DNA of 37,474 nt from the NCBI GenBank assembly GCA_003231925.1, contig QIKK01000083.1:1-37474 (forward strand), read 5' to 3'. Origin of the DNA: Candidatus Saccharimonadota bacterium. GTDB lineage: Bacteria > Patescibacteriota > Saccharimonadia > Saccharimonadales > SZUA-47. Of the stretch, positions 163-37,474 are shown piece by piece; the first letter of the stretch is position 1; each line of letters opens with the position of its first letter. Position numbers and translations under genes: made by a program. Under the pieces are notes generated by a model, which was not told the origin of the DNA, ran no database searches, and worked only from the letters and a program-made list of their open reading frames with translations.

Positions 163-207
163 GTTATGATGTGTTGAAAAAACCATGTGGACAGAGAGCA
201 TGTGTGT

Positions 208-216
208 TGGTATAAT
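208..216 (+). promoter_or_regulatory. extended -10 box TGGTATAAT, 7 nt upstream of ATG 224
   Basis: TGnTATAAT consensus match. The spacing predicts a leaderless or near-leaderless terS mRNA. Confidence 0.4.
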
Positions 217-25441: not shown

Positions 25442-25533
25442 ATCGAGTTAAGATGTTGTGTGCTTGTTTATATACTCCGCAACCAGTCCAATTGTATTAG
25501 GTGTTACGGTTGTTTATATTGTAGCATATCTAT

Positions 25534-25776
25534 CTATAACATCCCAACATTGGCTTCTAAAATCTCCCTACTAACAATCATCTTCTTGGGGATTACCATA
25601 TATGCACCTGCGTTTTCATCCTCTATAGCCATTGTAAGAGTGACAAACTCCTTTGTTTTTTTGACTAAGTAGCCCACCGTTTCTATCTCTACAAGAGTTT
25701 CCTCCTTTACTTTATCAAGGGACAACCACCCGTCATCGCCACAAGCGTCCTTCCATTTGATTTTTGTTATTTTCAT
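25534..25776 (-). CDS. hypothetical protein
   Basis: 80-aa ORF. Confidence 0.55.
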   Translation of the reverse strand: MKITKIKWKDACGDDGWLSLDKVKEETLVEIETVGYLVKKTKEFVTLTMAIEDENAGAYMVIPKKMIVSREILEANVGML

Positions 25777-25778
25777 AA

Positions 25779-26102
25779 TTAAATTACTGCTTTGAAGTCA
25801 GTACATATCTTTCCATAATTCTCAGCAATCAGGCGCTCTACTTTACATCCTCTAAATTCAGTGTAGTCATTTACGAAGAATACAATGTCCGCTCCTGCCA
25901 TTATTTTTATTGACTCTCCTAGATACCACAATCTTATGTCGTCACCCTTTAGTGCAATTTCTTTGTCTGCACCATCTATAATACTATCAAGCAATTCCGC
26001 TTCTGGTAGTTTGACCTTAATTTGCTCAAACACTTTCTGCATTTCAGCACGCACTTGTTCTGTACTTTTTGACTTCATTCCCATTGATATAAATACTTTC
26101 AT
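25779..26102 (-). CDS. DUF4406 / nucleoside 2-deoxyribosyltransferase-like protein (putative)
   Basis: MKVFISMGM...LWYLGESIKIMAGADIVFFVNDYTEFRGCKVE pattern. ATG 26102 lies 10 nt after the upstream stop. Track start 26141 is an alternative. Confidence 0.5.
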   Translation of the reverse strand: MKVFISMGMKSKSTEQVRAEMQKVFEQIKVKLPEAELLDSIIDGADKEIALKGDDIRLWYLGESIKIMAGADIVFFVNDYTEFRGCKVERLIAENYGKICTDFKAVI

Positions 26103-26112
26103 AATATATTTC

Positions 26113-26331
26113 TTATTCTTTAACTTCTTTGATAATTTCATCTAGCTGGTCTTTAATTCTCGTTTCATCAACAACCATATCCCTAATCGCTTCTAGGATG
26201 GTGAGGGTGTTTTGGGTGTATTCAGCTAATGGTGTGTCTTCATGGACTACGAACATTTTACCTGTGTAGTCTTTTGGCCATTGTTCAAACCTCTCCTCTC
26301 CCTCCCTAATCATTTTTGTAATCTTGTGCAT
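26113..26331 (-). CDS. hypothetical protein, paralog A (MHKITK family)
   Basis: Shares MHKITKxIxEGExxFE and QNTLTxLEAIRDMVV with the next gene. Confidence 0.6.
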   Translation of the reverse strand: MHKITKMIREGEERFEQWPKDYTGKMFVVHEDTPLAEYTQNTLTILEAIRDMVVDETRIKDQLDEIIKEVKE

Positions 26332-26335
26332 ATTT

Positions 26336-26605
26336 TTACTTTAATTCTTTGATAATAATTTCTAGCTGGACTTCGATGTCTTCTAGTGCCATATTGGTTG
26401 CCACGGCGAATTTTATATAATCGTCTTCTGCTTCATCATATATTTTTACTTTCTCAGCTACAACCATATCCCTAATCGCTTCTAGTAGGGTGAGGGTGTT
26501 TTGGTGTAAGTATTCTACATTTTTGTTTGGCTGTTCACCTGTTTTGTAAACAGTATCTTCAAACTTATCCTCTCCTTCTTTAATTTGTTTTGTTATCTTG
26601 TGCAT
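26336..26605 (-). CDS. hypothetical protein, paralog B (MHKITK family)
   Basis: See paralog A. A near-identical stretch of about 47 nt occurs at 26171..26217 and 26460..26506. Confidence 0.6.
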   Translation of the reverse strand: MHKITKQIKEGEDKFEDTVYKTGEQPNKNVEYLHQNTLTLLEAIRDMVVAEKVKIYDEAEDDYIKFAVATNMALEDIEVQLEIIIKELK

Positions 26606-26729
26606 ATTTTTTATTAAACTTATCTATCTCACTTTGTACAGCTTCATCAGTCGGGTGAAACAACCTTACTTTTCCTAGTGTTTTCAATTTGAACTCAAGA
26701 AAATCTTTGAGTATTTGTTCCTCGGTCAT
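26580..26729 (-). CDS. possible 49-aa protein
   Basis: MTEEQILKDFLEFKLKTLGKVRLFHPTDEAVQSEIDKFNKKYAQDNKTN. ATGA overlap with the methyltransferase stop. Confidence 0.35.
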   Translation of the reverse strand: MTEEQILKDFLEFKLKTLGKVRLFHPTDEAVQSEIDKFNKKYAQDNKTN

Positions 26730-27277
26730 ATCTTTATTTCAACTGTTACAAACGTATCATTCTTACTCCCTCCATGCGCCACAGCCATTATTTCTACAAT
26801 ACGAAATCCCCGGGCTTTCCCGAAACCATTGGTATTCCAACCAAACGATATAGCATGCCCACCAGATTCAATCTTCTCACACATATTACTTTTTATACTT
26901 TCGTAAAACTTCATTGAAGACTCTTCTTTTGTAAAATCCATTCCGAGTTTTTTATAATGTTGTTTAATTTGTGTGAATGAGTATGGTGGGTCATAAAGTA
27001 TTCCTGCATATTTTCCAGTTAGTTCGGCCGTAAAATCGCGAGCATCCATACAAAACTTTGCTTTTCTATCAGGATTGTGATCATTCGTTATCTCTGCCGG
27101 GCTGTACTTTCCTGCAAATGGGTCAACCCAATTCTTACCATTGCCTACATATTTTTCAAGTAAAACTTGAATTGGGTGTATAGAAAAAGTCCAAGCACAA
27201 GGCATCGCCCAAACACGACTAAACTTTATGTCTATTTCTTCAAACTTTCCTTTATATAATTGTGCCACCTTTTTCAT
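26726..27277 (-). CDS. DNA methyltransferase (DPPY family; motif I before motif IV)
   Basis: VDPFAG (AdoMet motif) followed by ILYDPPYS. Confidence 0.7.
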   Translation of the reverse strand: MKKVAQLYKGKFEEIDIKFSRVWAMPCAWTFSIHPIQVLLEKYVGNGKNWVDPFAGKYSPAEITNDHNPDRKAKFCMDARDFTAELTGKYAGILYDPPYSFTQIKQHYKKLGMDFTKEESSMKFYESIKSNMCEKIESGGHAISFGWNTNGFGKARGFRIVEIMAVAHGGSKNDTFVTVEIKI

Positions 27278-27662
27278 ACCAGTCTATTAACTTACACATA
27301 ACGTCCATATCGTAGTTTGCTACATATTCTTCTCTCTCCCTCGCTCCCTGCTCTTTTGCTTTTACTTCAACTTGACACATTTTCCATTTAATAAGCTCTA
27401 AGGTGTCAGGAGTGGTAAGTTTTCTTTCAGGAAAAGCCACATGCCATTCAGTATCCCAACTTTTGATACGGTCACGAAGTAGTTTTGTAGATGACCAACC
27501 TTCGTCTATTCCCTGCTCTTTCGCTTTTGTGAGGGCTTGTTTGAGCCAATCTATTGTTGTCTTTGTTTTATCGTCTGGAAAGAACATACCATTTTCACAT
27601 TCACCATTTCCAAACTTGTCTGTAAACTCCTCCGCCATTTCTTCTATGCTATTTGTTTTCAT
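27252..27662 (-). CDS. hypothetical protein
   Basis: 136-aa ORF. Confidence 0.55.
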   Translation of the reverse strand: MKTNSIEEMAEEFTDKFGNGECENGMFFPDDKTKTTIDWLKQALTKAKEQGIDEGWSSTKLLRDRIKSWDTEWHVAFPERKLTTPDTLELIKWKMCQVEVKAKEQGAREREEYVANYDMDVMCKLIDWYEKGGTII

Positions 27663-27692
27663 AATTACTCAATTAACTTATAATCTCGTTAC

Positions 27693-34366: not shown

Positions 34367-35893
34367 TTAAAAATCTTTATCATCTTTAATAAATGCCACA
34401 CCTTTATATCTTATACCATCTACTCTTCGTTCTTTTTTTATGATTGCATTTTTATCCTTGGATAACCTTGTTAATTCTCTACTAAATCTAGAACTGGATA
34501 CATGGTGTACACCATTATTCTTACACCATTTTATGTATCCTGTTGGATTAAAATTATCATAGTTACCATATAATTCACTTAGTGAATACTCATTATCTTT
34601 ATCTACAACAAATATTTCTCTATCAAGTAAGTATCTTAATATAGAATTATTGGATATAATATTTTCTTCTCTTTCTGTTTTAGATTCATCTGTTATATAG
34701 AATTCATTATCTTTTATAATTTCTTTAAGCCCTATAATTGCCCAATTAAGAATACCACTTGCTTCTTCAGCAAGTAATTTATCCTCATAACAATCAATAC
34801 GTTCTTTTTGTGGAAATTGATAGTCAAATGGTATTACTATCATTCTTTCATTCATCCCTTGTCCGTCTGTAATTTGTGGTAAATCATTACAAGCAATTAC
34901 GAAGTGCGTTGTTACTTTATATGAATATGGGGGTTTGTATTTTTTATTGATTGTTATAGTTCCCTCTGCTGACATATTTGTAAGATTTGCTGATGAAAGA
35001 TACTTATTGTTTATCTCATCAGAGAAATTTAACTGTTTACCTTCTATGGTTGGTAATTTTGAGGAATTTTCTGACGAAAGGTCTTGAAGTGAAAGAAATG
35101 AGGTGTTTTTTGTACCTATAAGTCCAACAAGTATCCTTACTGTTGTTGATTTTCCATTCCTCGCTGTATCCCCAAAAAGATAAAATACTTTATGCTTTGA
35201 ATTGCCTCTGTTAAGCACATACCCAAACATTTGTTGTAACATTCTTACAGTTCCCACATTGCCAGCAGATACTTTTTCTATATGTGCTAAAAAATGTTTA
35301 GGTATTGATACATTAGGATTGTACTCGTACGGTACTTGCACTGTTGAAAATATATCTGGTGTATGTTTTTTTGTTTTTAGAGTTTTTATGTCAAGGAGGG
35401 TATTTTTGAGATTAAGATATTTTATATCAACATCTTTTGTTGTGACTTTTCTTCTTAAGTGGCTTAAGTTATTTTTTACCATACCAACTGCATCCTTTAT
35501 TTTTCGTACTGATGTTCTTTCATCAAGAAGTCCGTTGCGTATAAATGTTTTATCCATCATTGCTTCTACTTCTACGTCTGGTATAGGATAATATACACCA
35601 TCTTTGTAATTATAAATTGTAAGGTTCTCTTCTTGTTGATAAAGTTTTAGATATGGGTATTTTTCTAAAAACAGTTGGTCTATTTTTGACATAATTTCTT
35701 TTTTTTGATTTTGTTGTATAAGCATACCCGCATTTTGTGCATTTTGTATGCGCATTGCATTGATGATTGCTGTTACTTTTTCTTCTGGAATATTCTCATG
35801 TTTTGCTATAATTGTAGCTGTATTTTTAGGATATATTTTTATATGTTCACGTACACGATACCGCATTTGCGATAATGTTAATTCTTTAGTCAT
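34367..35893 (-). CDS. SF3 helicase / P4-D5-type primase C-terminal protein
   Basis: Walker A GDTARNGKST and Walker B QLNFSDE. 508 aa, overlapping the prim-pol gene. Confidence 0.8.
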   Translation of the reverse strand: MTKELTLSQMRYRVREHIKIYPKNTATIIAKHENIPEEKVTAIINAMRIQNAQNAGMLIQQNQKKEIMSKIDQLFLEKYPYLKLYQQEENLTIYNYKDGVYYPIPDVEVEAMMDKTFIRNGLLDERTSVRKIKDAVGMVKNNLSHLRRKVTTKDVDIKYLNLKNTLLDIKTLKTKKHTPDIFSTVQVPYEYNPNVSIPKHFLAHIEKVSAGNVGTVRMLQQMFGYVLNRGNSKHKVFYLFGDTARNGKSTTVRILVGLIGTKNTSFLSLQDLSSENSSKLPTIEGKQLNFSDEINNKYLSSANLTNMSAEGTITINKKYKPPYSYKVTTHFVIACNDLPQITDGQGMNERMIVIPFDYQFPQKERIDCYEDKLLAEEASGILNWAIIGLKEIIKDNEFYITDESKTEREENIISNNSILRYLLDREIFVVDKDNEYSLSELYGNYDNFNPTGYIKWCKNNGVHHVSSSRFSRELTRLSKDKNAIIKKERRVDGIRYKGVAFIKDDKDF

Positions 35894-36794
35894 GATTGTT
35901 TAGATTAAACGAACTCATAACAAGATGTTGTGCAGCTTTTTTATAATCTTCATTATGGCTAAGAAGAGTATATAAATTAAATTTTGTATATCCTTTTTTA
36001 GGAATTATCGGTGATACTGAAGATGAGTAGCAAAAAAATAAATCATAATCATGATAGTTTGTTGATGCTGATATACCACCTCTTTTATCTTTATTCGGGC
36101 GTACCCAGTAAGTTGTAGGCTCTTTTTTATAAGCTATCTGCCAACCATGTGGTAATAATATTTGTTCCCATGTTGCGAGTGTGTTTAAAATATCTCCGGG
36201 ACGTGTTGAATTAAGATTGAGTGGAGTTGCTTTTGGTTTGTAGTCTAGTTGTATGTTAGAACTTTTTGCAACGTCTGCTGTCAATTGGTCTAGAACTTTA
36301 TCTAATAATTCTTGAGGTATATCTATAATTGGTTTATCTTTTGCTATTTCATAAGTACCTTTTCCAAAATCTGATGGTGGTGCAAAAAGAAGTGAATTGT
36401 TTGTTTGTAGGTCTATATTTTTTAATATTCCTTTACCTGAATGAATGATGTCTGACAACTTTTCTGTATATTTAAAATATACGTGATGTCCTCCTGATGG
36501 TGTTTTTATTGTAAATGTATCTACATCTAAAAACAATTGGTGGTGCGGATTTTCGTTGTTGTGTTTATATGAATCAAGATCAAAAACTATTATATTTGAA
36601 ATTTTACCTGCGACTGTTGCATAATTTTGATAAGGTTTATTAAGCCAATTTTTTATTTCTTTATCTGTTGGCTTTCTCTTTGTATATTCTTTCCAAGGCG
36701 TTACAACTTTCTTTTTATTACTTCCGGTATTAAAAAAAGAAAACCCATTACGTTTGTAACGCATGAGCATTTTTATAACTTGTATTTTTTCCAT
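35886..36794 (-). CDS. bifunctional primase-polymerase (AEP prim-pol) domain protein
   Basis: IVFDLDSYK (DxD) and TPSGGHHVYFKY motifs. Confidence 0.75.
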   Translation of the reverse strand: MEKIQVIKMLMRYKRNGFSFFNTGSNKKKVVTPWKEYTKRKPTDKEIKNWLNKPYQNYATVAGKISNIIVFDLDSYKHNNENPHHQLFLDVDTFTIKTPSGGHHVYFKYTEKLSDIIHSGKGILKNIDLQTNNSLLFAPPSDFGKGTYEIAKDKPIIDIPQELLDKVLDQLTADVAKSSNIQLDYKPKATPLNLNSTRPGDILNTLATWEQILLPHGWQIAYKKEPTTYWVRPNKDKRGGISASTNYHDYDLFFCYSSSVSPIIPKKGYTKFNLYTLLSHNEDYKKAAQHLVMSSFNLNNHD

Positions 36795-36942
36795 AGCGTA
36801 CTTTTAAGCTACTAATGAATTTATAATAGCATACAAAATTAATATGTGATACTATCTAGTTAGTGTGTTTTTAACATGCTACTAACTAAATCAGCATCTT
36901 TTTGACCTTTTTGCGTCATTTGGGTGCTTTTTTAGTATTTTA

Positions 36943-36984
36943 TGTAGGATAATATGGCTAAGAATATGGCTCCTGTAGGATAAT
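36943..36984 (+). repeat. 42-nt origin-like repeat, forward copy
   Basis: tgtaggataatatggctaagaatatggctcctgtaggataat. Its exact reverse complement is at 37190..37231. Confidence 0.95.
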
Positions 36985-37077
36985 GTATGATACATGTAGG
37001 ATAATATGGCTCAACTAAGCCATAATGTAGGAAATGTAGGAAAAAAAGTGTATTGTCTTTATATAGGTATAGGTATA

Positions 37078-37093
37078 CCCCCCCTCCCCCCCC
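37078..37093 (+). other. C7-T-C8 tract flanked by GGTATA/TATACC
   Basis: Read directly. It is followed by an AT-only block at about 37101..37130. Confidence 0.95.
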
Positions 37094-37136
37094 TATACCC
37101 TTTTTATATATATACTTTTTTTTAAAAAAGATACTA

Positions 37137-37178
37137 CATTACCTACAGGAGCCATATTCTTAGCCATATTATCCTACA
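37137..37178 (-). repeat. origin-like repeat, reverse copy 1 (one-base deletion at the outer end)
   Basis: cctacaggagccatattcttagccatattatcctaca. Confidence 0.9.
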
Positions 37179-37189
37179 TGGTGTTTTTA

Positions 37190-37231
37190 ATTATCCTACA
37201 GGAGCCATATTCTTAGCCATATTATCCTACA
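37190..37231 (-). repeat. origin-like repeat, reverse copy 2 (perfect)
   Basis: attatcctacaggagccatattcttagccatattatcctaca. Confidence 0.95.
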
Positions 37232-37246
37232 TTAGATAATAATTTT

Positions 37247-37449
37247 GTTACGGGTATAAGAGATTTAACCCGTAAACACCCGTAAACACCCGTAAACATT
37301 TTTTTTAAAGTACCCGTAAACAAATGTCATATTATATGGCTTAAAATATAAAAATGTTTACGGGTGTTTACGGGTAAAAAAAGGTACCCGTAACATGTTT
37401 TTATGGCTCTGTTTAGCTGTATAATTCATTTATGTTACGGGTTACGGGT
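37247..37449. promoter_or_regulatory. cluster of CCCGTAA(A)C iterons in both orientations
   Basis: Forward copies start at 37268, 37278, 37288, 37312 and 37386. Reverse copies start at 37247, 37356, 37366, 37434 and 37442. Confidence 0.8.
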
Positions 37450-37474
37450 ATATTCTTAATAACTTATCTATAAT
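37447..37474. repeat. 28-nt terminal direct repeat (partner of 1..28)
   Basis: Identical to 1..28. Confidence 0.9.

Follow-up and report, generated by a model that had tools for sequence, protein, structure and literature searches.

A putative SaPI/P4-type replication origin and an adjoining second origin-like module in a circular phage genome of about 37.45 kb

The window analysed here, which is the whole 37,474-nucleotide (nt) contig QIKK01000083.1, carries at 36942-37232 an array of inverted repeats around an AT-rich block, upstream of the genes for a primase-polymerase (prim-pol) and a superfamily 3 (SF3) helicase. Judging from the sequence comparisons described below, this array, denoted set A, is probably the replication origin of the phage, or else the cognate one of two origin cassettes, and belongs to the type known from staphylococcal pathogenicity islands (SaPI) and from P4. 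The initial annotation had proposed that convergent sites around an unwinding element beside the prim-pol/helicase operon form an origin, and the comparative and homology evidence makes this the best supported interpretation, because a homologue of the SaPI Rep protein is encoded next to the array, the SaPI origin has the same layout, and about 25 distant relatives of the phage retain that layout in the same location, with altered iteron sequences. Additional support comes from the association of the repeat module with the replication genes rather than with the terminase, and from the finding that no other initiator, integrase, repressor or partition (Par) protein was detected among the early genes scanned. 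The window ends in the same 28 nt with which it begins (37447-37474 = 1-28) and hence represents a circularly assembled phage genome, ~37.45 kb in length.

The repeats are contained in an intergenic region of ~870 nt (36795-37446 plus 1 to ~232) between two divergent operons. Set A occupies the positions 148-438 nt upstream of the prim-pol start codon, with the G tract at -299, and consists of the following elements.

36942-36984, plus strand: left arm, composite repeat copy L1, composed of TGTAGGATA + ATATGGCT + AAGA + ATATGGCT + CC + TGTAGGATAAT; exact reverse complement of R2.
36994-37011, plus strand: left arm, half unit L2 (ATGTAGGATAATATGGCT), in direct repeat family D1 and inverted pairs I8/I13, at 100%.
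37006-37023, no strand: palindrome ATGGCT-N6-AGCCAT (ATGGCTCAACTAAGCCAT), exact match; 7-bp hairpin, z = -3.3.
37026-37043, plus strand: two more forward iteron cores (TGTAGGAAA, at 37026 and 37035).
37066-37099, no strand: 8-bp inverted repeat GGTATAGG/CCTATACC around C7TC8 (G8AG7 on the minus strand).
37101-37129, no strand: AT block (TTTTTATATATATA C TTTTTTTTAAAAAA), candidate DNA unwinding element, 12.5% GC.
37137-37179, minus strand: right arm, composite repeat copy R1, exact over 37142-37179.
37190-37232, minus strand: right arm, composite repeat copy R2, exact.

The repeats listed in the initial annotation were recovered almost without change. No mismatch separates the 42-mer at 36943-36984 from the reverse complement of 37190-37231, and its near-exact copy at 37137-37178 differs at 4 positions, all at one end (over 38 nt, 37142-37179 against 36942-36979, the match is exact); as a whole, the inverted arms are 53 nt long and 94% complementary (36932-36984 against 37190-37242). 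The heptamer TGTAGGA is present at 36943, 36974, 36995, 37026 and 37035, its complement TCCTACA at 37172, 37194 and 37225, the ACCTACA variant at 37141, and the palindrome TATGGCTCAACTAAGCCATA at 37005-37024. The C7TC8 tract is likewise in place (37078-37093), but the AT stretch, described as pure A/T and roughly 30 nt long, comprises 29 nt (37101-37129) and includes one C. Altogether, five forward iteron cores on the left and four reverse ones on the right surround the AT block; the cores are 7-11 nt long (TGTAGGATAAT) and, together with ATATGGCT, form composite units of 17 to 42 nt.

The 17-mer TGTAGGATAATATGGCT has four exact occurrences, compared to 0.16 matches expected from shuffled sequences at up to 3 mismatches, and nine of the ten genomic copies of ATATGGCT/AGCCATAT are clustered within ~840 nt of intergenic sequence. 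Thus, the repeat pattern of set A is real, and chance is excluded. Of TGTAGGA/TCCTACA, 8 of the 14 genomic copies are found in this region. The C7TC8 tract, the sole run of G or C residues of at least 7 nt in the genome, falls in the loop of the inverted repeat at 37066-37099, for which DNA folding gives z = -2.5 and -2.4 on the two strands, and the AT block is the third least stable 30-40-bp duplex of the genome. No credible open reading frame (ORF) of 25 or more amino acids (aa) was found in the repeat region, and the window yielded no tRNA or Rfam RNA matches. A terminator-like hairpin followed by a T-run (GCGTCATTTGGGTGC TTTTTTAGTA; 36913-36937, plus strand) lies immediately ahead of set A; in relatives, a stronger hairpin separates the module from the early promoter.

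A second origin-like module, set B, which the initial annotation overlooked, adjoins set A on the right and continues over the circular junction.

37245-37452, no strand: set B, with four forward copies of ACCCGTAAACA (37268-37322) and two reverse copies (37355-37375).
1-136, no strand: continuation of set B over the circular junction, with ATATGGCT at 67 and ACCCGTAAACCCGTAAACA at 118-136.

Set B is made up of ACCCGTAAACA/TGTTTACGGG repeats in both orientations around AT-rich cores, with copies of GTTACGGG at 37247 and 37434-37449. The motif CCCGTAA/TTACGGG recurs at 37247, 37387, 37435-37449 and, beyond the junction, 118-136; counting both orientations, the genome has 13 copies of it, of which 12 map to the intergenic region. 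The module also includes two ATATGGCT sites (37334 and 67), a degenerate copy of the palindrome (37403-37420, ATGGCT-N6-AGCTGT) and the least stable duplex of the genome, (TAA)n(TA)n, at ~3-55. The iterons of sets A and B (TGTAGGATAAT and ACCCGTAAACA, respectively) are unrelated, and this pair is outside the 25 most similar iteron pairs listed.

The SaPI Rep proteins are self-loading helicases that recognise iterons through a C-terminal winged helix; the SaPI origin comprises an AT-rich centre with at least two iterons per side, in opposite directions, and Rep hexamers probably load on both sides of this centre (PMC9371898). The operon downstream of set A encodes the candidate counterparts.

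35886-36794, minus strand: prim-pol gene, 302 aa; Pfam Prim-Pol, E = 2.9e-15; weak match to the structures of pRN1 ORF904.
34367-35893, minus strand: SF3 (D5/P4-type) helicase gene, 508 aa, candidate initiator; Pfam DUF5906, D5_N.

A profile of 18 family helicases matches a single PDB sequence, that of SaPI5 PriRep5 (7OLA/7OM0; E = 2e-22), the C-terminal domain of which spans residues 676-790 (PMC9371898). Profile positions 74-497 are aligned with residues 361-760 of the 7OLA chain, that is, the D5_N tier and the ATPase, reaching into the C-terminal domain. In the AlphaFold2 model of the window helicase (predicted local distance difference test score, pLDDT, 87.6), a variable N-terminus of three helices and, at residues 435-497, a winged helix with the order strand-helix-helix-helix-strand-strand are predicted. 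The top Foldseek/PDB match of this model is 7OLA as well (E = 1.5e-19; template modelling (TM) score 0.71-0.76), followed by the PrimPol of African swine fever virus and poxvirus D5/E5. As far as profile comparison and the predicted fold can tell, the helicase is a homologue of the SaPI Rep initiator-helicase, the C-terminal winged helix included. Its core is highly conserved in the family, and residues 1-60 and 421-508 show low conservation, as expected if the termini carry specificity. Relatives of this helicase are labelled 'P4 family phage/plasmid primase' in databases, and at least 85 homologues with 36-47% identity are represented in metagenomes.

For comparison, approximately 30 loci of the family, here designated by L numbers, were fetched on the basis of prim-pol homologues from metagenomes (41-48% identity to the window). 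No close relative was present among GenBank phages or in IMG/VR: blastn with the intergenic region gave no match in GenBank phages, tblastn with the helicase gave only matches below 32% identity there, and an IMG/VR scan with the prim-pol protein gave none. Two nucleotide scans of IMG/VR produced hits that were rejected, namely, 30 single-copy hits to the 17-mer TGTAGGATAATATGGCT, judged to be due to chance, and hits to CCCGTAAACACCCGTAAAC in two unrelated high-GC phages, where it forms a two-copy operator-like repeat. The locus L035 is binned in a metagenome-assembled genome (MAG) of the cyanobacterium Stenomitos, the only hint of a host; the Stenomitos MAG contig is the one family member found in species-representative genomes, which thus lend no support to the family being common prophages.

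In these relatives, the terminase block is divergent from the prim-pol/helicase block, and the two are separated by a gene-free gap of 0.5-1.1 kb. Nearly every relative has an iteron of its own, 9-12 nt long and present in both orientations, between -100 and -600 from the prim-pol ATG, for example:

L035: iteron AGACCCAGAT.
L046: iteron TCTGCCAGATGA.
L042: iteron GCCGACAGATA.
L062: iteron CTACACTAAA.
L059: iteron ATAGGGGAT.

In 17 of the 25 modules from relatives, a 30-nt window with an A+T content of 85% or more is flanked on either side by two or more iterons, and the iterons are in both orientations; 5 others are near misses. At least ten relatives possess a G or C tract of 6-9 nt at -296 to -414 from the prim-pol ATG (C7G7 in L046), and these tracts adjoin AT or (TA)n blocks of 18-42 nt that occupy the same position as the block in the window. 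Given its location at -148 to -438 and the G tract at -299, set A is the positional homologue of the modules in relatives. The relatives encode large terminase subunits (TerL) of three families (Terminase_6N, Terminase_3 and GpA_ATPase) and differing small subunits (TerS), often with additional genes that separate the module from terS. The L132 module is embedded in a co-directional gene array, directly upstream of prim-pol. By gene order, the module associates with the replication genes and not with the terminase. Chaperonin genes adjoin the module in two loci, Cpn60 in L035 (1109-2641) and Cpn10 in L040 (2799-3053).

Conservation of the motifs in relatives, one of the checks suggested in the initial annotation, differed between the two site classes: ATATGGCT is family-conserved and TGTAGGA lineage-specific. 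The heptamer ATATGGC is 7-fold enriched in the modules of relatives, and aligned instances yield an 18-bp palindrome, ATGGCT-N6-AGCCAT, typically ATGGCTCAACnnAGCC. With up to 2 mismatches, this palindrome is present in the modules of 11 of 23 relatives, at a density 20-fold greater than in the rest of each locus; it was also found in L132, L139, L143 and L145. Sequence comparison hence identifies ATATGGCT as a half-site of a family-conserved palindrome, a class of sites separate from TGTAGGA. The combination of iterons that differ by lineage with a palindrome common to the family implies two different readers.

The two loci L047 and L049 bear on the question of which protein reads the iterons. 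Their prim-pols are 99% identical, their iterons are different and the iteron regions unalignable, and their helicase cores are 65% identical. One breakpoint of this mosaic falls ~180 nt ahead of prim-pol and another close to where the helicase C-terminal domain begins; the helicase and iterons of L049 resemble those of L035. In this one natural recombinant, a nearly identical prim-pol accompanies different iterons and is therefore not the specificity determinant. By analogy with SaPI Rep, the C-terminal domain of the helicase is a candidate iteron reader.

From these observations, we infer which protein binds which site, where the duplex melts and that initiation occurs at set A. The phage SF3 helicase (34367-35893) would bind the iterons of the TGTAGGATA type on both flanks via its C-terminal winged helix, and helicase rings would then assemble on either side, facing each other. 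The rings would melt the AT block at 37101-37129, and the C7TC8/G8AG7 hairpin tract that flanks it may set the limit of melting or assist the opening. The prim-pol (35886-36794) would make the first primers, to be extended by the host polymerase. The ATGGCT-N6-AGCCAT palindrome and the ATATGGCT half-sites would be read by a second, family-conserved factor.

Several observations weigh against the assignment of set A as the origin. Set B contains the least stable duplex of the genome, so set A may not be the active module, and the region also bears promoters, such that a regulatory role is not separable from the origin role. The inflection of GC skew that the initial annotation had proposed to look for at the element is located elsewhere: the rotated cumulative minimum is at ~35.0-35.25 kb, ~1.7-2 kb away. 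However, skew is confounded by gene orientation in this genome, where the switches of GC and AT skew coincide with the change in gene orientation; prim-pol and the 5' part of the helicase gene have a positive plus-strand GC skew, opposite to the other minus-strand genes, which places the minimum where it is, and the skew is thus not diagnostic of an origin here. Among the relatives, the module of L131 lies 2.3 kb upstream of prim-pol, at a junction of divergent genes, and no module was found in the 7 kb fetched of L032-L034, in which a transposase of the IS1595 type is located directly upstream of prim-pol (L032:1512-2372); a more distant subfamily (31% identity) has no clear module. In a Mantel-type test on 15 genomes, iteron similarity was not correlated with similarity of any helicase segment, the C-terminal domain among them, or of prim-pol (rho <=0.13, p >=0.17), and L042 and L053 share the CCGACAGAT core although their helicase C-terminal domains are only 37% identical; with no covariation signal, the assignment of iteron reading to this domain rests on homology. 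Finally, the SaPI origin is immediately downstream of rep, whereas the element in the window is upstream of the pri-rep operon, and SaPI iterons are 5-6 nt long, compared to the 7-11-nt cores within 17-42-nt composite units in the window.

The promoters bring up the possibility that the repeats play no part in an origin and are operators of a switch acting on the early (prim-pol) and late (terminase) promoters, which diverge. The region is indeed situated between divergent operons, and promoter-like sites are present on both of its sides.

36823-36850, minus strand: candidate early promoter of the prim-pol operon (ATCACA-16-TATTAT with TG), weak consensus match.
188-216, plus strand: strong promoter-like site (TGGACA-17-TATAAT with TG), 11 of 12 consensus positions.

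The number of hits in the scan that gave the early promoter was not above that in shuffled sequences, and a ATCACATA...TATGC motif at this promoter is common to the upstream regions of relatives. The 188-216 site falls inside the mechanically called TerS ORF, and the Pfam match of TerS begins at residue 19; hence, TerS probably starts at ATG 233 rather than at 185. An 18-bp palindrome is typical of a dimeric regulator, and the L131 module, at a divergent junction far from prim-pol, would also suit an operator. Nevertheless, no repressor, Cro-like protein or integrase was detected among the early genes scanned, 9-18 sites that span ~300 nt and surround both a (TA)n block and a G/C tract are not an operator layout, and the L132 module is away from the divergent junction. 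We therefore regard a purely regulatory function as unlikely, the operator and origin functions not being mutually exclusive.

DnaA boxes are not enriched in the genome (TTWTCCACA with up to 1 mismatch, 30 hits compared to 28.4 expected), and none is within set A. DnaA-box-like 9-mers occur near or overlapping the early promoter in some relatives, TTTTCCACA in L042 and TTATCCACA in L053 and L131; 8/9 matches are present in L048 and L132, and all of these sites are ~60-110 nt upstream of the first early gene. Motifs of the TGTGGACA type were observed in L035, L040 and L049; in the window, this motif is present only at the late promoter (187-195).

A different arrangement, in which set B, with its ACCCGTAAACA repeats around (TAA)n(TA)n at 3-55, is the origin of the resident initiator, and set A is a non-cognate or relic cassette acquired by recombination, appears quite unlikely. 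Set B does have 12 iteron copies in both orientations, ATATGGCT sites, a degenerate palindrome and the weakest duplex of the genome, and tandem cassettes in two relatives show that such cassettes are mobile and that a pair may include a foreign one. Specifically, L048 (1900-2990) and L058 (1724-2928) each carry two tandem modules, the same pair in swapped order: module X, with CTCACCCAGC iterons, G7 and (TA)n, and module Y, with ATGCTGACAG iterons, each followed by its own hairpin and promoter segment. At the nucleotide level, the modules of the two loci are 95-96% identical, the terminase-side flank 98% and the prim-pol region 72%. (A 166-aa gene in the flank of L048 was considered as a homologue of the window TerS and found not to be homologous.) Double modules are thus not unique to the window, and the modules recombine as units; the two loci point to recent cassette shuffling. 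However, it is set A, not set B, that lies where modules of the family typically do (-148 to -438) and that includes the exact palindrome as well as the G/C tract, and in L048 and L058, a different module is next to each phage's own replication genes, which suggests that the proximal cassette is the cognate one. By analogy, set A, the proximal module in the window, is more likely to be the cognate origin.

The same data can be extended to a broader proposal, which we consider doubtful: the window would harbour two tandem origin cassettes of different specificity, modular and swapped between phages independently of prim-pol, each cassette combining lineage-specific iterons, the palindrome, a G/C homopolymer capable of forming a G-quadruplex or i-motif, and a (TA)n element. 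In this proposal, a second conserved replication factor would land on the palindrome, and origin opening would involve the structure of the homopolymer. If so, a foreign cassette would let the phage be replicated by, or compete with, the initiator of a co-infecting relative.

That the repeats instead form a packaging site, that is, a pac or cosB-like array bound by the small terminase, is highly unlikely: although terS (GP3_package) starts ~230 nt beyond the region, and the window and the contig L031 both end in the set B AT block, the architecture and the palindrome are kept across three unrelated TerL families with different TerS, chaperonin or other genes often intervene between the module and terS, and the contig ends of relatives are inconsistent, AT-rich low complexity being enough for an assembly break. 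L031 (Ga0212224_1001055, 7868 nt) is identical to the window over 4589 nt and ends exactly at the window's end base, inside the (TA)n-rich block of set B; it is probably not an independent assembly of the set A sequence, and the common end is probably where assembly broke off in low-complexity AT sequence, not a physical terminus. The idea that contigs stop at true genome termini, with a shared end near set B that is cos-like or resembles a direct terminal repeat, was rejected in view of the inconsistent start positions of the contigs of relatives.

The remainder of the genome is organised as two blocks of opposite orientation.

~185 to ~25,000, plus strand: structural genes; TerS is GP3_package and TerL is Terminase_6N.
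~25,500 to 36,794, minus strand: early and replication genes.
33660-34364, minus strand: PD-(D/E)XK-like exonuclease.

The early block further encodes a VRR-NUC nuclease, two DNA methyltransferases and an HTH-HNH protein. The best-scoring tandem repeat of the genome, at 33592-33668, consists of an 18-nt unit (minus strand, ACAAGTCTAACCGATTAC) in 4.3 copies with 98% matches and occupies the gap between the stop codon of the exonuclease and the ATG of a 62-aa ORF (33398-33586). It has no counterpart in relatives within the fetched range and could be a regulatory array or another initiator-binding array.

With the assignment proposed here, a sizeable family of uncultivated phages with genomes of ~37-42 kb would gain a concrete, testable pair of origin and initiator, and the SaPI Rep model of a self-loading helicase, so far one of staphylococcal satellites, would extend to tailed phages from the environment. 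Cassettes that differ in their iterons and have the palindrome in common form a natural series, which provides material for the study of origin specificity and exchange. The finding reveals no new principle of replication. The statement in the initial annotation that no such element had been defined applies to this phage family, but the kind of element is already known from SaPI and P4.

The closest resemblance is to SaPI. In both, the gene for the SF3 helicase comes after that for the primase, the helicases are homologous, and opposed iterons, at least two per side and element-specific in sequence, flank an AT-rich centre. The SaPI type is further characterised by specific binding of Rep to its cognate iterons, by melting of the origin without ATP and by replication of the origin fragment. 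Three features of the window, the 18-bp palindrome, the G/C tract next to the AT block and the tandem double cassettes, are not part of the SaPI origin as summarised in PMC9371898. The primase also differs, being in the window a prim-pol of the archaeo-eukaryotic primase (AEP) type encoded by a separate gene, and the window is a tailed phage genome of ~37 kb, whereas SaPI is a satellite. P4 likewise employs a D5_N-type SF3 helicase, in this case fused to the primase, the C-terminal DNA-binding domain of which recognises repeated sites in two cis-acting clusters, ori and crr; these clusters share the same type I iteron and are kilobases apart. The window resembles P4 in the type of helicase and in having two clusters of cis-acting repeats, but not in the ori/crr pattern, given that its clusters are adjacent and their iterons unrelated.

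The oriV of plasmid RK2 contains iterons, an AT-rich DNA unwinding element, DnaA boxes and a GC-rich stretch, and iteron specificity defines the replicon. As in the window, the iterons are next to the unwinding element, which is flanked by the GC-rich stretch. The initiator of RK2 oriV, however, is a winged-helix dimer of the RepA/TrfA type, whereas the candidate in the window is a helicase; and in the window, unlike in oriV, opposed iterons lie on both sides of the unwinding element, and DnaA boxes are not enriched. No Rep_3 or O-type family hit was obtained for the window, which does not conform to a DnaA-dependent iteron origin of the oriV or lambda type. The replicon pRN1, like the window, combines a prim-pol with an SF3 helicase for replication, the two being fused in ORF904. 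The minimal pRN1 replicon needs the operon promoter region and 166 bp downstream of orf904, and the abstract of that study mentions no architecture of iterons and AT block like that of the window (PMC4234260). Taken together, these comparisons indicate that set A is most likely an origin of an already known kind, to which this phage family has added a conserved palindrome, a G/C tract and a tandem second cassette.

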